From the NCBI GenBank assembly GCA_964651525.1, contig CAZYWN010000011.1:1-14572 (forward strand): a stretch of DNA of 14,572 nt. The letters are read 5' to 3'. The translations under genes were made by a program, and so were the position numbers. Origin of the DNA: an uncultured Candidatus Saccharibacteria bacterium (GTDB taxonomy: Bacteria > Patescibacteriota > Minisyncoccia > Phycocordibacterales > UBA2135). This document shows, piece after piece, positions 3,319 through 14,572 of the stretch (position 1 is its first letter; each line of letters starts with the position of its first letter). The notes below the pieces were generated by a model that was given only the letters and a program-made list of their open reading frames with translations, was not told the DNA's origin and did no database searches.

Positions 3319-5700
3319 ATGAAACAAATAAAACCAAAACGCCTTGTCTTAATAGACGCCCACGCCATCCTCCACCGCGCCTATCACGCGTTGCCTGAAT
3401 TCACTTCACGGACGGGAGAACCGACGGGTGCCCTCTACGGTCTCTCCGCGATGGTGATGAAACTCATCAACGATTTGAAGCCGGACTATATTGTCGCGTG
3501 CTATGACATGGCGGGGCCGACATTCCGCCACGAAGCGTACGAACAATACAAAGCGAAGCGCCCAAAAGCCGAGGACGATTTGATTCTCCAAATGAACCGC
3601 TCGCGCGACATCTTCCGCGCGTTTGACATCCCCGTTTATGAAAAATCGGGGTTTGAAGCGGATGATGTTATCGGTACGATAGTAAAAGAGACCGAAAAAG
3701 AGTGCCGCGCGGGCGGACTTGAAGTCGTCATCGCCTCGGGCGACATGGACACGCTTCAGCTTGTCTCCGGAAAAAACGTTACCGTCTACACTCTTCGCAA
3801 AGGAATTTCCGATACCATCCTCTACGACGAGGGTACGGTGAAAAAACGCTACGGATTTCCGCCCGCGCTTGTCGCTGACTATAAAGGACTTCGCGGCGAC
3901 CCGTCCGATAATATTATCGGCGTCCCCGGCATCGGAGAAAAGACGGCAACCGCGCTCATACAAGAGTTCGGCGACATTGAAACAATCTATAAGAAACTCA
4001 AAAAAAATCCTGATGAGTTTTTGGAGAAAGGATTCAAGAAAAGAATCGTGGAGATTTTGAAAGAGAACGAGGAGGAGGCGCTTTTTTCAAAAACACTCGC
4101 GACCATCCGCCGAGACGCGCCGATAGATTTCCAAATGCCCGCGGAAACATGGCGGGAAAGTTTTTCTCCTGAAAAAGTAAAGAAGCTTTTCCAAGAGCTT
4201 GATTTTAGGACGCTCGGCACGCGGGCCGAAAATCTTGTAACAAAAAAAGCCGCCGATGAAACATCGGAGGAAGAATTCCCCGAAAAGTTGCCGCTTGGGC
4301 GACCTTCCGAAGAGGCGGGAGACGATATCCTTCGTGAAACAGCGCTCGCCGTGTGGGTTCTTGACTCAAACAACATCGCTCTTGGGAAAGAAGGCGTCTT
4401 GGAATTCACGGGGAAGGAAACGCTTGCGGACGCGCGCGCGCATATCCTGTCGCTCTTGAAGAATCAAGGAACGCTTAGCGTCTATACGGACATGGAGCTT
4501 CCGCTCATTCCCATTCTCCTTTCCGCGGAAAAACAGGGCATTTTGATTGACGTCCCGTACTTGAAAGAACTCTCCGCGAAACTGCATACGGAGCTTGAAT
4601 CGCTTTCCCAGAAAATATGGACGCTCGCGGGAACGCGCTTCAATATCAACTCTCCGCAACAGCTGGGACAGATTCTTTTTGAACATCTGAAACTGGAACG
4701 GAAAGGCATCAAGAAAACCGTCGGCGGCGCCATTTCAACGCGCGAGTCGGAGCTCCAGAAACTGAAAGGTCAGCATGAAATCATAGAAGTGCTTTTGCGC
4801 TATCGTGAATTGCAGAAACTTCTTTCCACCTACATTGATAACCTTCCGGAGATGGTGGATGCCGATGGCCGTCTTCACACAACATTCGTCCAGACAGGCA
4901 CCACGACGGGGCGGCTTTCTTCGCAGAATCCCAATCTCCAGAACATCCCGATTAAAGGAGAGTATGGACGCGAAATCCGCCGCGCGTTCGTCGCGGAGAA
5001 AGGACACACGCTTGCCGCGTTTGATTATTCCCAAATTGAGCTTCGCGTTCTGGCGATTCTTTCAAAAGATAAGCGGCTTCTTGAAACGTTTGAGAAAGGG
5101 AAAGACATCCACGCGGCAGTCGCCTCGTCCGTGTTCGGCGTTCCCGAAGCGGAGGTGACGAAGGAGATGCGCCGGAAAGCAAAGGTGATAAACTTCGGTA
5201 TCCTCTACGGCATGGGCGTTACCAGTTTGCAGAAAAGTTTGGGCGGCACGCGCGAGGAGGCGCAGATTTTTTATGATAATTATTTCAAAAGATTTCCCGA
5301 GGTCACGCACTTTATAGAAGACACGAAGCGAACCGCGACAATCAAAGGATATACGGAGACATTGTTCGGGCGGCGGCGGTATGTAGAAGGATTGCGCTCG
5401 CCTATCCCCTATATCCGCGCTGGAGCAGAACGGATGGCGGTGAACGCGCCGATTCAAGGCACTGCCGCGGACATTATTAAAAAAGCGATGCTCGCTGTGG
5501 ATGCCGCTCTCCAAAAAGAAAACCTCGCAACGCGCGCGCACCTTGTTCTCCAAGTGCATGACGAATTGATTTACGAAATTGAAGACGAGGCGCTCGCGCG
5601 CGCGCTTCCCTTGATACAAAAAGAAATGGAGGGGGTCGTTCATGAAAAAATCCCGTTTGGCGTCAGCGTCGCGCACAGCAAGAATTGGGGAGAAATTTAA
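3319..5700 (+). CDS. polA: DNA polymerase I (5' nuclease plus polymerase domains; 3'-5' exonuclease motifs not evident)
   Basis: 793 aa from ATG 3319 (MKQIKPKRLVLIDAHAILHRAYHA). The 5' nuclease region has GFEADDVIGT and GIGEKTA. Polymerase motifs are A DYSQIELRVLA, B RRKAKVINFGILYGMG and C QVHDELIYE. No DxE (Exo I) motif is visible between residues ~300 and 430. Confidence 0.95.
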   Translation: MKQIKPKRLVLIDAHAILHRAYHALPEFTSRTGEPTGALYGLSAMVMKLINDLKPDYIVACYDMAGPTFRHEAYEQYKAKRPKAEDDLILQMNRSRDIFRAFDIPVYEKSGFEADDVIGTIVKETEKECRAGGLEVVIASGDMDTLQLVSGKNVTVYTLRKGISDTILYDEGTVKKRYGFPPALVADYKGLRGDPSDNIIGVPGIGEKTATALIQEFGDIETIYKKLKKNPDEFLEKGFKKRIVEILKENEEEALFSKTLATIRRDAPIDFQMPAETWRESFSPEKVKKLFQELDFRTLGTRAENLVTKKAADETSEEEFPEKLPLGRPSEEAGDDILRETALAVWVLDSNNIALGKEGVLEFTGKETLADARAHILSLLKNQGTLSVYTDMELPLIPILLSAEKQGILIDVPYLKELSAKLHTELESLSQKIWTLAGTRFNINSPQQLGQILFEHLKLERKGIKKTVGGAISTRESELQKLKGQHEIIEVLLRYRELQKLLSTYIDNLPEMVDADGRLHTTFVQTGTTTGRLSSQNPNLQNIPIKGEYGREIRRAFVAEKGHTLAAFDYSQIELRVLAILSKDKRLLETFEKGKDIHAAVASSVFGVPEAEVTKEMRRKAKVINFGILYGMGVTSLQKSLGGTREEAQIFYDNYFKRFPEVTHFIEDTKRTATIKGYTETLFGRRRYVEGLRSPIPYIRAGAERMAVNAPIQGTAADIIKKAMLAVDAALQKENLATRAHLVLQVHDELIYEIEDEALARALPLIQKEMEGVVHEKIPFGVSVAHSKNWGEI

Positions 5701-5821
5701 ATGAAAGATACCAATATACAAATGAGTACGAATGCAACGAATGAATACGAATACCGAGGATGCCACATTTGCAGCCATTAGTATTATTCGTATATATTCG
5801 TAGATTGGTATCTTGTATTTT
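5701..5821. repeat. Palindromic ACGAAT-word intergenic cassette, copy 1 (fills the polA stop to holA-like start gap)
   Basis: AAGATACCAAT (5705-5715) pairs perfectly with ATTGGTATCTT (5804-5814). The arms are built of degenerate ...ACGAAT / ATTCGT... words. Positions 5701-5752 match 13907-13958 at 47/52. Confidence 0.8.
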
Positions 5822-6541
5822 ATGCTTTATTTATTCACCGGCTCGGATAAAGAAAAAGCGCGGGGGAAATTCCGCGCGGATGTGAACGCGCTCCGCGCGA
5901 AAAAGCCGGACGCCTCGTTTGTTGAGATGGACGAGCTGTCGTTTTCCTCCGCGCGGATTCTAGAACTTCTTGCGACGCGCGGAATGTTTGAAAAAGCGGT
6001 TATCGCCGCGTTCAGAAATCTTTTGAATAACGAGGAAGCCGCCGCGTTTCTCGCAAAAAACGCGAAAGGGCTCGCGTCGTCGGAAAACGTCTTTTTGGTG
6101 TGCGAAGAGGACGCGACGAAAACCGCCCTTGCCCCCTTGGAAAAACACGCGGATAAAGTGTGGCGCTTCACGGCGCAAGCGGCGCGCAAAGAATTTCCCA
6201 TCGTTTTCCCGTTCGCCGAAGCGTTTCTCGCTCGCGACAAGAAAAAAGCGTGGATTCTTCTTCAAAGAATACTCTCCGAAAATATCCCGCCGGAGCAGAT
6301 TTTCGGCGCGCTTTTCTGGCAGGTAAAAACCGCGGCGCTCGTAAAAAAAGCGCAAAAAATGAACTCGGTCGGGGCACTCGGGCTGAAACCGTTTGTCCAA
6401 AGCAAGGCGGAACGCCTGTGCCGCGGCTATTCCGAGCAAGAGCTCACGGAACTTCTTGGAGAAATCGTTGGCCTCTACCATTCCCGCGAAGAAGGCGGCC
6501 TAGAACCCGCGCTCGCGCTGGAGCGGCTCGTATTGCGATAA
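5822..6541 (+). CDS. holA: DNA polymerase III delta subunit-like protein (short form)
   Basis: 239 aa from ATG 5822. The N-terminus MLYLFTGSDKEKARGKF and the C-terminal helical region (AFLARDKKKAWILLQRILSENIPPEQIFGALFWQVKTAALVKKA) resemble HolA layout. It has no P-loop and sits directly after polA. Similarity was judged by eye only. Confidence 0.6.
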   Translation: MLYLFTGSDKEKARGKFRADVNALRAKKPDASFVEMDELSFSSARILELLATRGMFEKAVIAAFRNLLNNEEAAAFLAKNAKGLASSENVFLVCEEDATKTALAPLEKHADKVWRFTAQAARKEFPIVFPFAEAFLARDKKKAWILLQRILSENIPPEQIFGALFWQVKTAALVKKAQKMNSVGALGLKPFVQSKAERLCRGYSEQELTELLGEIVGLYHSREEGGLEPALALERLVLR

Positions 6542-6627
6542 AACAAGAAAGCATACGGCGCTACGCGCCTAATCAACGAAGCAAATCTGTTTCGTTGATT
6601 TTTTGTTTCTTTGCTTCGTTGTTTTAT
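6538..6627. repeat. Nested-hairpin GCTTCGTTG-word module, copy 1 (between convergent holA-like and TrmB-like genes)
   Basis: Outer stem is ATAAAACAAGAAAGCA (6538-6553) with TGCTTCGTTGTTTTAT (6612-6627), 14/16 paired. Core AAGCATACGGCGCTACGCGCCTAA (6549-6572) is 23/24 identical to 11904-11927. It contains the hairpin GGCGC-TAC-GCGCC. Confidence 0.7.
6572..6605 (+). terminator. Rho-independent terminator for the holA-like gene (inner hairpin of the module)
   Basis: ATCAACGAA (6572-6580), 10-nt loop, TTCGTTGAT (6591-6599), followed by TTTTTTG. Confidence 0.7.
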
Positions 6628-7454
6628 TGCTTCGTTGCTTCGTTTTCTTCTTGCCGCGCGATAAGTGTCCGCAAAAGCTCATTCGCATCAATAGAGCGCG
6701 AATTGTCCTGCATAAACTGGAACAATGCGAGTATCATTTTCTGAATTTCTGAGTTTCTGATTTCAATGATAATTCCTTCATTCAACGCCAAAAGATAAAG
6801 AGATTTTTTGAATATAAACATCTGGCTGCCGTGCTCAAAATATTTCGGGTCAATAACGTTGAAACGCGTCGTTCGTCCTTCAAAATCCTTTGCCCACTCC
6901 GCTCCAAACTTTGCCGTCTGTTCTTCAAACCAATTTTCGGGAGCAATCGCCTCAACAATGAGGCGGTTGTTTTTTATTGCACGATTGAGACGGTTTGTTT
7001 CGGCTACGGAAAAATATTTTTCCCAGCCGATATTTGAGACGGACCCTTGGTAACCATACAACCGCTCCCCCTTATTTTCTTCTATAATCTCATGGAGAAG
7101 GGTTTTTATCGCTTTCTCGCCACGATGGATGACGATTGTCGCGTCCGCCTGCCCGTACACTTCTTCGCGCCCTTCTGGAATGCCTAAAAGCGCGTGTTTT
7201 GCATCAGCGATAGCGCGGTCTATATCGCGCTCTTCGCTAACACGCCAGCGTTTTTTGCCATCATGCGTGTGATATTCTGCAAGTCCCCTCTTTTTCAGGT
7301 TTTTCAGGATTGCATATACGGCAGGGCGTGATACCCCCGTTTGTCGGGCCAGTAAAAGCGGCGTATTCGCGTCGCCACGGAGCGCCAAAAGCGCCTTTTC
7401 TTCTTTGTCGCTTAGCCCAAGAGCCCTTAATTTGTCGTCTTTTTTCGTTGCCAT
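6624..7454 (-). CDS. TrmB-like winged-helix transcriptional regulator with uncharacterised C-terminal domain
   Basis: The 276-aa ORF has the N-terminal wHTH LGLSDKEEKALLALRGDANTPLLLARQTGVSRPAVYAILKNLKKRGLAEY, typical of the TrmB N-terminal domain. The last residues EENEATKQ and the stop are encoded by the GCTTCGTTG repeat words. Confidence 0.8.
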   Translation of the reverse strand: MATKKDDKLRALGLSDKEEKALLALRGDANTPLLLARQTGVSRPAVYAILKNLKKRGLAEYHTHDGKKRWRVSEERDIDRAIADAKHALLGIPEGREEVYGQADATIVIHRGEKAIKTLLHEIIEENKGERLYGYQGSVSNIGWEKYFSVAETNRLNRAIKNNRLIVEAIAPENWFEEQTAKFGAEWAKDFEGRTTRFNVIDPKYFEHGSQMFIFKKSLYLLALNEGIIIEIRNSEIQKMILALFQFMQDNSRSIDANELLRTLIARQEENEATKQ

Positions 7455-9171: not shown

Positions 9172-9227
9172 CACCGCCGTGTCAAGGTCCGTCATACGGA
9201 TCAAACACGGCGGTTTTTTTATTTTTT
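9172..9227 (+). terminator. Rho-independent terminator after the membrane protein operon
   Basis: CACCGCCGTGT (9172-9182) pairs with ACACGGCGGT (9205-9214) around a loop holding a small TCCGT/ACGGA hairpin. It is followed by TTTTTTTATTTTTT. Confidence 0.7.
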
Positions 9228-9260
9228 AGCGTTTTCTCTTTTTTTTGCTTCGTTGTTTTG

Positions 9261-9275
9261 TGGTATAGTATATTC
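9261..9275 (+). promoter_or_regulatory. Extended -10 box giving a leaderless start for the small-membrane-protein cluster
   Basis: TGG-TATAGT (hexamer 9264-9269), then 6 nt (atattc) to ATG 9276. There is no Shine-Dalgarno. Confidence 0.4.
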
Positions 9276-9476
9276 ATGCGGCTCAATCGGTATCAGATAG
9301 AACTTGTATCAAAGTATTTCGCCGATTTGTCTAAAATCATAATCGCGTCGGTGGTAATCGTTTATTTTGTCCCTGCACAAGGAGCCGTTGTGACGCCTTT
9401 GGTTTTTCTTGTAAGCATAGTGGTCGCTATTTCGTGCATCTTGATTGGGGTTTCCCTGTCAAAACAACTTATATGA
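9276..9476 (+). CDS. Small membrane protein (66 aa, 2 predicted TM)
   Basis: MRLNRYQIELVSKYFADLSKIIIASVVIVYFVPAQGAVVTPLVFLVSIVVAISCILIGVSLSKQLI. It is in frame with track ORF 9258..9476. ATG 9276 is preferred because of the -10 geometry. Confidence 0.55.
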   Translation: MRLNRYQIELVSKYFADLSKIIIASVVIVYFVPAQGAVVTPLVFLVSIVVAISCILIGVSLSKQLI

Positions 9477-10201: not shown

Positions 10202-10502
10202 ATGGAGGATTACATCATTTAAGCACATATTTTCTAATTTCTCCAGTTTCCGCACGTTTTTAATGACTTTTCCAGTTTCCAGCGTCTAGTTTTCTAGAAT
10301 CCAGAGTTATCCCCACCCTTCCCCTTGCGCGGGTGAAGCGGCGCGCGGTATGATTAAAAAGGATAGGAATAGAACCTCCTGAAGACAACGTGTCCCGCGT
10401 CAAGGGTTATCACTCGGTTTCTTTCTAGGGATTCTCTTCCATACAGTTCTTTCTGCTCCTTTACCCACAATCTAATATACAAAACATGTAAAATCCATGT
10501 TT

Positions 10503-10537
10503 GAAGGACCACCTCTCTGGCTGGTCCTTCTTTTTTT
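10503..10537 (+). terminator. Orphan plus-strand Rho-independent terminator with no upstream plus-strand ORF
   Basis: GAAGGACCA (10503-10511), 10-nt loop, TGGTCCTTC (10522-10530), followed by TTTTTTT (10531-10537). Confidence 0.65.
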
Positions 10538-10575
10538 ATGTGTCTTCCCTGTATTTCGACAACAATGTATTTTTT

Positions 10576-10647
10576 ATTCGCATGTGCGACATTCGTAGAG
10601 TCGCATTCCCCTTTTCCGACTCGATGTCGGAAAAGGGGAAGACGCAC
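10576..10647. repeat. Two-hairpin repeat module, copy A (downstream flank of the DUF502-like gene)
   Basis: ATTCGCATGTGCGACATTCGTAGAGTCGCATTCC contains hairpin 1: TGCGAC (10585-10590) with GTCGCA (10600-10605). Hairpin 2 is CCCCTTTTCCGAC-TCGAT-GTCGGAAAAGGGG (10608-10638), followed by AAGACGCACAAA. Confidence 0.8.
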
Positions 10648-10674
10648 AAAAAAGCGCCTTTTTACGGGCGCTTT
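10645..10674 (-). terminator. Rho-independent terminator of the DUF502-like gene
   Basis: On the minus strand, AAAGCGCC / GGCGCTTT forms the stem. The stop codon (10662-10664) lies in the loop. TTTTTTGTG follows, and that U-tract is the complement of the conserved A-rich tail of repeat copy A. Confidence 0.6.
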
Positions 10675-11303
10675 CCTTTTTTCACGAGAACAGCCACTGA
10701 TTCAAGTTCATCCGCTGCCGGATAATTACTCCCTCCGGCGCCGCAGGCGACTACGATACTGAATACTTCCTGCATGGTGAGCATCGGCAATGGAAACACA
10801 ACCTCGTTCCGGAGCGTATGGATAAACCCCGTGGTGAAATTGGGCGCTGTCGGTTCAAAACACCGGCAATACCCTTCCCGTGGATAACCGACAACGAACC
10901 CCATCTTCTCCGTGTTTTCCCTTCCTTCAGGAAAAAATATCGCCGACGAGATGAATATCGTCTTCTTGTTCTTGAAAATAGATGAAAATTGAGAAAGAGC
11001 GTCCCGTAAGAGCGAATAGCCGATAACAATTCGCTCTACCGGTTTTTCCACAAACCGCCCGAGGCGCGTTTTGGCAAGTACCCCAATGGAGAAACACAAC
11101 GCGAGCGCGATTGAGAACTCAAGCCCTTTCGCGACATACTCGTTTAAGGCGACTCCCATTGAGGCAATCTTTACCAACGGCCCCGTAATGAGCGATATCG
11201 TATTGAGGAGCATATTCAAAAGCGCAAAAGGAAACGACACCGAAAAAGCGATGATGAAGCCCCCTATCAAAGACGCAATGAAAAAATCCTTGATTCTTCG
11301 CAT
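10662..11303 (-). CDS. DUF502-family membrane protein
   Basis: 213 aa with N-terminal TM helices. The C-terminal block FEPTAPNFTTGFIHTLRNEVVFPLPMLTMQEVFSIVVACGAG resembles the DUF502 signature (PTTPNPTSG...VP...MS.E.A...SGG), judged by eye. AGGAAGG Shine-Dalgarno lies 7 nt before the ATG. Confidence 0.8.
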   Translation of the reverse strand: MRRIKDFFIASLIGGFIIAFSVSFPFALLNMLLNTISLITGPLVKIASMGVALNEYVAKGLEFSIALALCFSIGVLAKTRLGRFVEKPVERIVIGYSLLRDALSQFSSIFKNKKTIFISSAIFFPEGRENTEKMGFVVGYPREGYCRCFEPTAPNFTTGFIHTLRNEVVFPLPMLTMQEVFSIVVACGAGGSNYPAADELESVAVLVKKGKRP

Positions 11304-11351
11304 CTATGGCCTTCCTGCGATTGTGAAAAACAGGGTTGACATCTGGGGTTA

Positions 11352-11380
11352 TGTATAGCACATTTCCCGCGTGTTGGAAA
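11352..11380 (-). promoter_or_regulatory. Candidate promoter of the DUF502-like gene
   Basis: The minus strand reads TTTCCA, 17-nt spacer, TGC-TATACA, with about 45 nt of leader to ATG 11303. Confidence 0.3.
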
Positions 11381-11420
11381 CAACGCCCCCAACGGGCGTC
11401 ACGTCGCGTTCCCGTCTTAA

Positions 11421-11495
11421 ATTCGTATGTGCGACATTCGTAGTGTCGCATTCCGTTTTTTCGGACTCGATGTCCGAAAAAACGGAAGACACAAA
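11421..11495. repeat. Two-hairpin repeat module, copy B (upstream flank of the DUF502-like gene)
   Basis: ATTCGTATGTGCGACATTCGTAGTGTCGCATTCC is 32/34 identical to copy A. Hairpin 2 is CCGTTTTTTCGGAC-TCGAT-GTCCGAAAAAACGG (11453-11485), followed by AAGACACAAAG. It is in the same orientation as copy A. Confidence 0.8.
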
Positions 11496-11527
11496 GAAAA
11501 ACCTCTCCCGCGTGAGCGAGAGAGGTT
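11493..11527 (-). terminator. Rho-independent terminator of the 65-aa gene
   Basis: AACCTCTC-C-CGC GTGA GCG-A-GAGAGGTT forms a hairpin with a GNRA-type loop. On the minus strand it is followed by TTTTTCTTTGTG, which is the complement of the tail of repeat copy B. Confidence 0.65.
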
Positions 11528-11565
11528 TTCTGTCTGCAGACAGTTGAGACGGGTCGTAAGAGAAA

Positions 11566-11763
11566 TTACTGCCCTTCTACTGCTGGCACCTCTGCGGCAC
11601 CGTCAACGGCCGCGTCAGCCGCTGCCGCTTGGTCAGCCACGGCGTCCAAGGAGTTGTCCGCCGCAGGCGCTGCGTCGTCTTTCCCCATGAGGAAATATCC
11701 CCCGAGGACGACCAACGCCAAAACCGCAAAAATAGCAACGTTGCGATTGAGAAGTTTGTCCAT
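11566..11763 (-). CDS. Small N-terminally anchored protein with Ala/Asp-rich acidic tail
   Basis: 65 aa: MDKLLNRNVAIFAVLALVVLGGYFLMGKDDAAPAADNSLDAVADQAAAADAAVDGAAEVPAVEGQ. It has one TM/signal-anchor and a low-complexity tail. It has its own terminator, and I recognise no homolog. Confidence 0.5.
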   Translation of the reverse strand: MDKLLNRNVAIFAVLALVVLGGYFLMGKDDAAPAADNSLDAVADQAAAADAAVDGAAEVPAVEGQ

Positions 11764-11891
11764 ACTGAAAAACGATTTATATTATGTAGAGTTAAACACT
11801 ACTCTTATCGACCCTTAAATCCGGATTTGTAAGGATTCGTTGTTAGTATAGCAAAAAACATTCTTCATATGCAAGTTATACACAGGAAAGC

Positions 11892-11998
11892 AGCGAAGCA
11901 ATAAAGCATACGGCGCTTCGCGCCTAAGCAAAAAAGCAAATCGCTTCTTTGTTTCGTTGCTTCGTTGCTTTATTGCTTCTTTGCTTCATTGCTTTATT
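11892..11998. repeat. Nested-hairpin GCTTCGTTG-word module, copy 2 (divergent gap upstream of the SpoU-family gene)
   Basis: Core AAGCATACGGCGCTTCGCGCCTAA (11904-11927). The outer stem GAAGCAATAAAGCA (11895-11908) pairs with TGCTTTATTGCTTC (11966-11979), a perfect 14 bp. It is followed by GCTTCGTTGCTT-type words. Confidence 0.7.
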
Positions 11999-12031
11999 CC
12001 AAATTCAGGCCTTAAATGCTTCAATACCCAA

Positions 12032-13902: not shown

Positions 13903-14020
13903 GAAAATGAAAGATGCCAATCTACAAATAAATACTAATGCAACGAATGAATACGAATATACGATGTGTAACATTCGTAGTTATTTGTATCATTCGTACT
14001 CATTCGTATATTTGTATCTT
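13903..14020. repeat. Palindromic ACGAAT-word intergenic cassette, copy 2 (fills the murE-like stop to LTD gene start gap)
   Basis: Positions 13907-13958 match 5701-5752 at 47/52. The arms pair (AAAGATGCCAAT 13910-13921 with ATTTGTATCTTT 14010-14021, and onward, about 37/51 over the arms). The centre ATGTGTAACATTCGTAG (13964-13980) is 15/17 identical to hairpin 1 of the two-hairpin module. Confidence 0.8.
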
Positions 14021-14572
14021 TTATTTTACCACGTTTTTCAACGCGCTTCGCGCGATTTCGGCGTCGCTCCAGGGGATTTTCGTTCCATTGGGGCCCATAA
14101 TATACGGGTCGGTCCCCTTTCCGGTGATTAAGACAACATCACCCGCTTTCGCGCGGCGTATCCCCTCCTCTATCGCTTTTTCTCTATCAAGAATCTTGTA
14201 AATGTTTGGATTTTGGGCTTTGGGTTTTGGGTTTTGCGAGAACCCTGAAGCGACCTCTTCCATAATCGCTTCCGGGTTCTCATCATACGGGTCTTCGTTG
14301 GTCAAGATAATCTCATCACAATGCTCCGCCGCGATACGTCCTAGTTCCGGACGCTTCCACTTGTCCCGTCCGCCGCCGCACGCGCCAAGCACGCATATTT
14401 TCCGCGCGGCAGGAAACGCTCCGTAGAGATTTTCCAACGCATCCGGCGTATGCGCATAGTCAACATAAACGCTAAATCTCTGCCTCTGGCGCGCGCTGGA
14501 GCCCATTGGCAACTCCACTTTCTCAACACGGCCGGGGGTTCCCTTAAACTTTTCCGCCGCCCTTTTTATCAC
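14021..14572 (-). CDS. murE: Mur ligase C-terminal part, MurE-like (UDP-MurNAc-tripeptide synthetase), 5' end outside the window
   Basis: VDYAHTPDALENL, GACGGGRDKWKRPELGRIAAEHCDEIILTNEDP, DREKAIEEGIRRAKAGDVVLITGKG and WSDAE follow the MurE C-terminal pattern. The leading M in the track is an edge artefact. Confidence 0.85.
   Translation of the reverse strand: MIKRAAEKFKGTPGRVEKVELPMGSSARQRQRFSVYVDYAHTPDALENLYGAFPAARKICVLGACGGGRDKWKRPELGRIAAEHCDEIILTNEDPYDENPEAIMEEVASGFSQNPKPKAQNPNIYKILDREKAIEEGIRRAKAGDVVLITGKGTDPYIMGPNGTKIPWSDAEIARSALKNVVK
14205..14239. repeat. In-frame tandem heptamer array inside the murE-like coding sequence
   Basis: TTTGGAT TTTGGGC TTTGGGT TTTGGGT TTTGCGA (five units). 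On the coding strand it encodes SQNPKPKAQNPN in a normally variable loop before the DREKAI motif. Confidence 0.6.

Follow-up and report, generated by a model that had tools for sequence, protein, structure and literature searches.

A probable new family of small mosaic palindromic repeats, often adjoining terminators, in a clade of Candidatus Liptonbacteria

A repetitive extragenic palindromic (REP) sequence is an imperfect palindrome of 20–40 nt with a conserved GTAG or CTAC tetranucleotide immediately 5′ of its stem; REPs occur in tens to hundreds of copies per genome, and the gene of the REP-associated tyrosine transposase (RAYT) is itself flanked by them. The integron attC site is built differently, as a single long imperfect hairpin with R″/L″–L′/R′ cores (RYYYAAC ... 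GTTRRRY) that lies downstream of a promoterless, variably present gene and has an integrase nearby. A group IIC intron starts with GUGYG, ends with AY, has domains I–VI and usually encodes a protein. Bacteria of the Candidate Phyla Radiation (CPR, or Patescibacteria) have small genomes, for which the usual picture is one of streamlining and little mobile DNA. Here we analyse a two-hairpin module that occurs twice in a 14,572-nt stretch of CPR DNA (the window), once on either side of a DUF502-like gene. The module probably represents a family, new for a CPR lineage, of short palindromic repeats that form mosaics, akin to REP, BIME, BOX or MITE (miniature inverted-repeat transposable element) sequences. 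We favour, with some reserve, the view that it is a small palindromic element that moves or recombines but is not autonomous.

The module is about 71–73 nt long and consists of ATTCGYATG, hairpin 1, hairpin 2, which follows without a gap, and GACRCA. Copies A (10576–10646, plus strand) and B (11421–11493, plus strand) lie in the same orientation, and their first 34 nt are identical at 32 positions, as an earlier note on this DNA had described. In copy A, the 5′ lead ATTCGCATG precedes hairpin 1 at 10585–10605 (TGCGAC / ATTCGTAGA / GTCGCA); copy B has the same arms, TGCGAC and GTCGCA, around a 9-nt loop at 11430–11450. Hairpin 1 thus has 6 bp, and the loop consensus of the two copies is ATTCGTAGW. 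Both substitutions fall outside this stem, again as described before: a C/T difference at module position 6, 5′ of the stem, and an A/T difference at position 24, in the loop. Hairpin 2 has a perfect stem and the loop TCGAT in both copies; its stem, previously given as 13 and 14 bp, extends to 15 bp in copy A (10606–10640) and 16 bp in copy B (11451–11487) when the outer TT/AA pairs are included. The tail reads GACGCA in copy A and GACACA in copy B. The near-identical strain GCA_016181795.1 (contig JACOYP010000010.1) carries both copies unchanged.

Further copies were sought with the pattern ATGTNNNNCATTCGTAGNGNNNNATTCC, which leaves the hairpin-1 stem and the whole of hairpin 2 free, in two collections. 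It had no match in genome_contigs, a collection that does not contain the source genome, and a single one in metagenome_contigs, copy C (locus L002). A covariance model, R1, was then built from copies A, B and C. The window copies obtain E-values of about 1e-26 to 1e-29 with R1 (103.7 bits for copy A), matching by construction as seed copies. Outside the seed set, full copies score between 1e-12 and 1e-16. A covariance search, as the earlier note had proposed, yielded two further copies, copy D (50.4 bits; L005 and L006, also L029) and copy F (59.6 bits; L022). With its filters off, R1 found no full copy besides A and B in the 14.6-kb window, and no further copy in the other readable part of the source contig, which holds 2.5 copies in about 30 kb (of 34 kb), all of them inside 1 kb. 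The scores of the non-seed copies and the lack of other full matches in the window are the support for the family that does not depend on the seeds. The half copy is remnant E (10539–10561, minus strand), which retains the 3′ arm of hairpin 2 and the tail (TGTCGAAATACAGGGAAGACACA on the minus strand), belongs to an inverted-repeat pair and has the complete copy F as its ortholog in L022. The total is five full copies and one remnant at four independent loci.

These copies occupy dissimilar places. Copy C lies directly upstream of infC and in the orientation of that gene, within its 5′ untranslated region (UTR); a strong promoter-like site (TTGCAA, 16 nt, TGCTATACT) precedes it, and the Shine-Dalgarno sequence and ATG follow. 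Copy D, found in Candidatus Liptonbacteria of the RIFCSPLOWO2 type, is situated between convergent acyltransferase and aldehyde-dehydrogenase (Aldedh) genes and falls in the predicted Aldedh 3′ UTR. Copy F lies just 3′ of the DUF502 terminator in the orientation opposite to that of copy A. As far as sampled, the family does not extend beyond one narrow clade within Candidatus Liptonbacteria, a CPR lineage of the Parcubacteria/Paceibacteria. A pattern anchored on hairpin 2 gave nine loci from unrelated taxa in genome_contigs, and these were dismissed as chance matches: the best three score 12.8–15.4 bits with R1 and the others are not reported by it. No solo hairpin-2 unit was present among the loci compared. 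Pattern scans of the viral collection returned nothing relevant to the module, and BLAST searches of the plasmid and phage collections gave no match to it. At the Rfam gathering threshold a tRNA alone passed; at a relaxed threshold the best match over the module was the L2-Alphaproteobacteria leader, with 28.3 bits against a threshold of 37.8. Literature searches for MITE or REP-like elements in CPR turned up nothing relevant.

Each occupied site is empty in a close relative. The infC leader carries copy C in L002 but no module in L003/L004, whose IF3 is 94% identical, or in L038, L036 and L005. The acyltransferase/Aldedh spacer that holds copy D in L005, L006 and L029 is reduced in L003 to 63 nt with the terminator only. 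The spacer between the 65-amino-acid gene and the DUF502 gene contains copy B in the window and no copy in L020, L021, L022, L023/24 and L039, where the site consists of terminator T3, about 45 nt and then a promoter-like site. The spacer downstream of the DUF502 gene differs by lineage: the window has the reversed copy A together with remnant E, L022 has copy F in the forward orientation, and L020 and L023/24 have unrelated hairpin-rich sequence and no copy (the L021 contig stops 27 nt past the gene). In L039, the site orthologous to copy A (916–954) is occupied by a solo hairpin-1 unit that lacks hairpin 2 and reads ATTCGTATG CGCGAC ATTACGAAT GTCGCT CATGCGAAT; its flanks are symmetric, and it is embedded in ACGAAT/ATTCG repeats. 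Throughout these relatives the order SpoU, 65-amino-acid gene, DUF502 gene, conserved non-coding region and tRNA-Lys is kept.

Pairing within the module is preserved despite this turnover. All differences between the hairpin-2 stems of copies A and B are compensated on the other arm, as had been stated before: two are changes of C:G to T:A, one is a change of C:G to G:C, and the fourth, according to the placement of the indel, is either another change of C:G to G:C or a G:C pair that has been inserted. Compared with shuffled sequences, the folding z-scores of the two copies range from −6.6 to −9.6 on either strand. An alignment of the five full copies, which is fitted to the model and in which hairpin 1 of copy D is misaligned by its insertion, has standard pairs in 98.1% of its pair cells, as against 41–57% in slid controls. 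Both sides have changed in 8 of 21 pairs (13 cells), and within hairpin 2 five pair types occur at one position and three at another. Of 500 shuffles, not one attained the observed value on any of four measures, and a single one did so on a fifth. In hairpin 1 of copy F, two pairs are compensatory (G:C to A:U and A:U to G:C) and one has become U·G. Both hairpins are therefore really maintained, and compensatory change now extends over five copies instead of two. The description of the two window copies as direct evidence for selection on pairing was, all the same, an overstatement: compensated arms are also expected for hairpins formed by the single-stranded DNA of a mobile element, and they can arise in one step by template switching within a hairpin. 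The hairpin-2 loop of copy F fits the consensus better when reverse-complemented (28.5 bits) and appears to be flipped, as is typical of DNA palindromes.

The position of the module relative to terminators shows some regularity. The DUF502-like gene (10662–11303, minus strand, 213 amino acids) ends in the intrinsic terminator T1 (10650–10675, minus strand), which overlaps the stop codon and is kept in relatives; its U-tract (10648–10653 on the minus strand) leads straight into the reverse complement of copy A. The U-tract of T3 (11497–11530, minus strand), the intrinsic terminator of the 65-amino-acid gene (11566–11763, minus strand; 65–67 amino acids in relatives), likewise leads into the reverse complement of copy B, and T3 is conserved in relatives with stem changes that remain complementary. 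Both are real terminator-like minus-strand hairpins with stems unrelated to each other, in agreement with the earlier note. The third terminator hairpin, T2 (10503–10537, plus strand; GAAGGACCA / TGGTCCTTC followed by T7), ends a conserved non-coding region, and its U-tract leads into remnant E, which adjoins the A-run of this terminator. In all six copies, the remnant included, the 3′ end is RCA followed by an A-run (CAAAAAAG, AAGAAAAA, TACAAAAG, TAAAAAAG, TAAAAAAAG, CAAAAAAAG). This A-run is the complement of a terminator U-tract in five of the six, the terminators being T1 for copy A, T3 for copy B, T2 for copies E and F, and that of the acyltransferase gene for copy D; in copy C it is an A-rich stretch before the infC Shine-Dalgarno sequence.

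The A-run had been counted as part of a conserved A-rich tail. Only GAAGACRCA, the true 3′ end of the repeat, belongs to the element; the A-run is flank, since L003 and L038 have it at the infC site although no module is inserted there, and at the other sites it is the A/U-tract of the terminator. Because GAAGACRCA abuts the A-run, on the opposite strand the module directly follows a T-run that is mostly a terminator U-tract; with four independent loci, a fixed orientation to the T-run is no more than suggestive. The idea of a post-terminator structure on the minus strand is thus right about position. None of the sites requires the module, however, and one copy lies in a 5′ UTR, so we read its position as a site of insertion or of tolerance. 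Hairpin 2 does not have the form of an intrinsic terminator, as the sequence next to its stem is GACRCA (plus strand) or UGCGAC (minus strand) and not a U-tract; within the module, a terminator scan flagged hairpin 1 of copy B alone, and weakly. Upstream of the DUF502-like gene, a promoter-like site (11352–11380, minus strand; TTTCCA, 17 nt, TGCTATACA), predicted from sequence and conserved in relatives, comes after copy B when the minus strand is read, so that copy B sits between T3 and this site.

How the module compares with described repeats can now be considered. Like the REPs and BIMEs of proteobacteria, it is a short extragenic palindromic unit with compensated stems that forms mosaics with other motifs, is frequent at the 3′ ends of genes, in spacers of convergent gene pairs and inside operons, and can host nested insertions. 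All five full copies even contain the tetranucleotide GTAG, which in the module lies in the hairpin-1 loop, 8–9 nt before hairpin 2, and not at the foot of a stem. The module differs further in having no sequence similarity to REPs, AT-rich and perfect stems, a copy number that seems low and a CPR host, and no Y1 transposase domain of the RAYT type is among the Pfam domains recorded for the genes of the source contig. With the MITE-like small interspersed repeats of the BOX, RUP, Correia/NEMIS and ERIC types it shares a modular, hairpin-forming build (those elements measure about 70–150 nt), variability between strains and occurrence in UTRs, where such elements are co-transcribed. It differs from them in having no recognisable terminal inverted repeats or target-site duplication: its ends, ATTCGYATG and GAAGACRCA, are not complementary, as those of a MITE would be, and no sequence is duplicated in the flanks of copies A, B, C, D and F.

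The palindrome-associated transposable elements (PATEs) derived from IS200/IS605 also have, as a general rule, neither terminal inverted repeats nor target duplications. Further points of likeness are the sub-terminal hairpins of the module, 7 and 9 nt from its ends, and its fixed orientation to the flanking T-run, as expected for single-strand transposition. Unlike the left-end and right-end hairpins of PATEs, which resemble each other, the two hairpins of the module are dissimilar, and its flank is a loose T-run, whereas PATEs insert 3′ of a defined target of 4–5 nt and have a cognate TnpA in the genome. The link to the IS200/IS605-derived elements is one of resemblance, and membership is unsupported. 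Group IIC introns, too, are found directly after a terminator U-tract in one orientation, and copy A starts with GUGCG on the corresponding strand. A length of 71 nt is too short for the ribozyme domains, neither domain V nor a reverse transcriptase is present, and outside copy A the GUGYG start has given way to GUGUC, AUGCG or GUGGG; membership in this class is excluded by size and 5′ ends. More generally, a group II intron fragment, a hammerhead-like ribozyme and an attC site were all discarded because of their size or absent core motifs.

Taken together, a mechanism can be outlined that would account for these features. A small palindromic element probably inserts, inverts, decays and is lost between genes, and the formation of hairpins in a single strand, be it DNA during mobilisation or co-transcribed RNA, would keep the arms complementary. 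The association with terminators would reflect a preference or tolerance for insertion and not a function in termination, and the bracketing of the DUF502-like gene would be a by-product of two independent insertions behind two terminators on the same strand.

Several observations weigh against this interpretation. Mobility is deduced only from presence and absence, as neither a transposase nor terminal inverted repeats nor a duplicated target site could be identified; the copy number (2.5 in about 30 kb) is low for a classical REP or MITE; and the positional and orientation rules rest on small numbers, there being only five full copies and one remnant at four independent loci. Wobble pairs are mostly valid on the plus strand of the module (four, as opposed to one on the other strand), and the folding energy is lower on that strand in four of the five copies, which would fit a functional RNA as well. 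Furthermore, a candidate closing helix, P0 (UGCGU/AUGCG, on the opposite strand only), co-varies between copies A and B and is broken in copy F, which hints at structure beyond the two hairpins.

Such observations raise the question of whether the module could be a functional RNA that has spread to gene ends and leaders, where it would act as a stabiliser or insulator against exonucleases, read-through or antisense transcription. Besides the strand preference just mentioned, this explanation could draw on the perfect stems, kept over roughly 10–25% sequence divergence, on the inclusion of copies C and D in predicted transcripts (the infC 5′ UTR and the Aldedh 3′ UTR) and on the terminator that adjoins the module in five of six copies. 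The 4:1 wobble bias is not significant, however, and the strand it favours is antisense to the flanking genes at copies A and B and post-terminator in L022. Close relatives lack the module at every site, and the apparently flipped hairpin-2 loop of copy F and the interrupted hairpin 1 of copy D are unexpected for an RNA with a sequence-specific function. We therefore regard a functional RNA as unlikely. The context of transcription is also inconsistent, comprising a 5′ UTR, a 3′ UTR, antisense and post-terminator positions, which makes a dedicated small RNA (sRNA) or cis-regulator unlikely. In particular, the proposal that copies A and B are plus-strand sRNA genes, each made of two hairpins and a shared bidirectional terminator and antisense to the mRNA 3′ ends of the DUF502-like and 65-amino-acid genes, is quite improbable, even though the plus strand folds well and has, next to each module, a hairpin that ends in a T-rich tail, T1 being flagged as terminator-like on the plus strand as well (10651–10674). 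A promoter scan found no promoter-like site upstream of A or B, the sequences upstream of A, B, C, D and F are unrelated, the differing placement of this strand in other genomes (an infC 5′ UTR, a 3′ UTR or behind a terminator) leaves no constant transcription unit, copy C is followed by the infC start codon instead of a terminator, and relatives with the same genes have no copies. A promoter within the module was considered because the hairpin-1 loop contains TAGAGT/TAGTGT, which is similar to the TAGATT found close to real promoters; neither there nor upstream was an acceptable −35/−10 pair found. The position of copy C had prompted the idea of a leader of the infC/L20 type, which was abandoned because five other infC loci have no module.

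Two further explanations concern the arrangement of the copies around one gene. Two structured repeats in the same orientation could be recombination sites, similar to attC or otherwise, with the DUF502-like gene as a mobile cassette between them. Relatives, however, keep the order SpoU, 65-amino-acid gene and DUF502 gene with no upstream repeat and with a downstream copy that is absent, reversed or partial. The module comprises two separate hairpins, not one long imperfect hairpin, and no GTTRRRY/RYYYAAC core is discernible by eye. Among the domains recorded for the genes of the 34-kb contig there is no integrase, and the DUF502 gene has a conserved promoter-like site of its own and fixed synteny, unlike the gene of an integron cassette. 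Alternatively, a local segmental duplication or gene conversion, with no mobility or function and with a merely coincidental shared terminator position, would explain why all copies of the source contig lie inside 1 kb. It leaves the related copies at unrelated loci of other genomes (the infC leader and the acyltransferase/Aldedh spacer) unaccounted for. Moreover, copy A shares about 90% identity with copy C, which comes from a different locus in a different genome, and about 84% with copy B, as counted on the alignment of copies, so the A/B pair does not represent a local duplication that brackets the gene. Site turnover, the kept gene order and the closeness of A to C together rule out a DUF502 cassette and a recent local duplication; a local duplication or gene conversion of any age is very improbable and the cassette hardly credible.

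Returning to the palindromic repeat that we favour, the module is one part of a mosaic repertoire, as hairpin 1 with its ATTCG flanks also occurs solo in L039. The hairpin-1 loop of copy D holds a GC-rich palindromic element of about 80 nt, inserted after CATTCG, and this element is found beside CGAATG twice elsewhere, which suggests a site-specific nested insertion. The GC-rich element (CCTGCCCGCA...TGCGGGCRGG) is located at 5795–5874 and 9839–9874 in L005 and at 6795–6878 in L029, adjoins CATTCG/CGAATG every time, and is known here from Liptonbacteria of the RIFCSPLOWO2 type and absent from the window. The centre of an ATTCGTA-rich inverted-repeat element at 13904–14026 of the window resembles hairpin 1 of the module. 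Elements of this sort, about 122 nt long, are also present at 5699–5821 in the window, at about 9800–9960 in L005 and at about 6781–6984 in L029; they span exactly the interval from a stop codon to the next ATG (polA–holA, infC–rpmI, rpmI–rplT). Their arms carry ATTCGTA/TACGAAT motifs, some in pairs 10 nt apart (11 matches in the window, 1.9 being expected). Their right ends are conserved (TAGATTGGTATCTT...ATG) and have no Shine-Dalgarno sequence.

A more specific and rather doubtful version of mobility can be formulated, in which a new single-strand-specific CPR element has the module as its mobile unit or as its pair of ends; this element homes to terminator T-runs in a fixed orientation, has neither terminal inverted repeats nor target duplications, and is one of several interacting site-specific mini-elements. 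Its partners might conceivably be the GC-rich palindromes that target ATTCG and the stop-to-start inverted-repeat elements, which together would build intergenic regions, a suggestion that we hold just as tentatively. Only if insertion is truly terminator-directed and orientation-specific would a new mechanism be involved. Independently of that, at least one Liptonbacteria clade carries several short palindromic repeat families that turn over between close relatives, nest mutually and cluster at terminators and between genes. In the discovery of RNA motifs, covariation in such repeats mimics that of functional RNAs; in annotation, the repeats create spurious open reading frames (ORFs); and in strain typing, the elements can serve as presence/absence markers. 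An example of a spurious reading frame is the GTG-initiated ORF of 97 amino acids at 10354–10647 (minus strand), which crosses T2, remnant E, copy A and some of the conserved non-coding region; that this ORF is spurious is almost certain, and the NCBI record contains no such call.

Some other features of the window were recorded along the way. Compared with JACOYP010000010.1, the window has two insertions, one of 73 nt (11838–11910) upstream of the SpoU methylase gene and the other of 59 nt (1245–1303) inside a pseudouridine synthase ORF, which measures 248 amino acids in the window and is called with 194 in that record; the window is thus a close variant of the record and not the record itself. 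Between the stop codon of the 65-amino-acid gene and T3 there is a perfect palindrome, CTGTCTGCAGACAG (11530–11543), which each of the six relatives examined has kept. Three intergenic regions (6575–6668, 9217–9278 and 11929–12014) hold arrays with an 8-nt period (TTGCTTCG-like), and two of these arrays are adjoined by a 47-nt repeat with a GGCGC-N4-GCGCC hairpin (6541–6587 and 11896–11942). The non-coding region that ends with T2, about 220 nt long (10318–10540, plus strand) and situated upstream of tRNA-Lys, shows strong conservation in L022 and L020. Its features are a promoter-like sequence (TTGCGC, 18 nt, TATGAT), the absence of any Rfam match and a plus-strand fold composed of a long rod-like hairpin with many G·U pairs, a small hairpin and then T2, in which L020 has a compensatory change of A:U to C:G. 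We consider this region a candidate for an unannotated structured small RNA.

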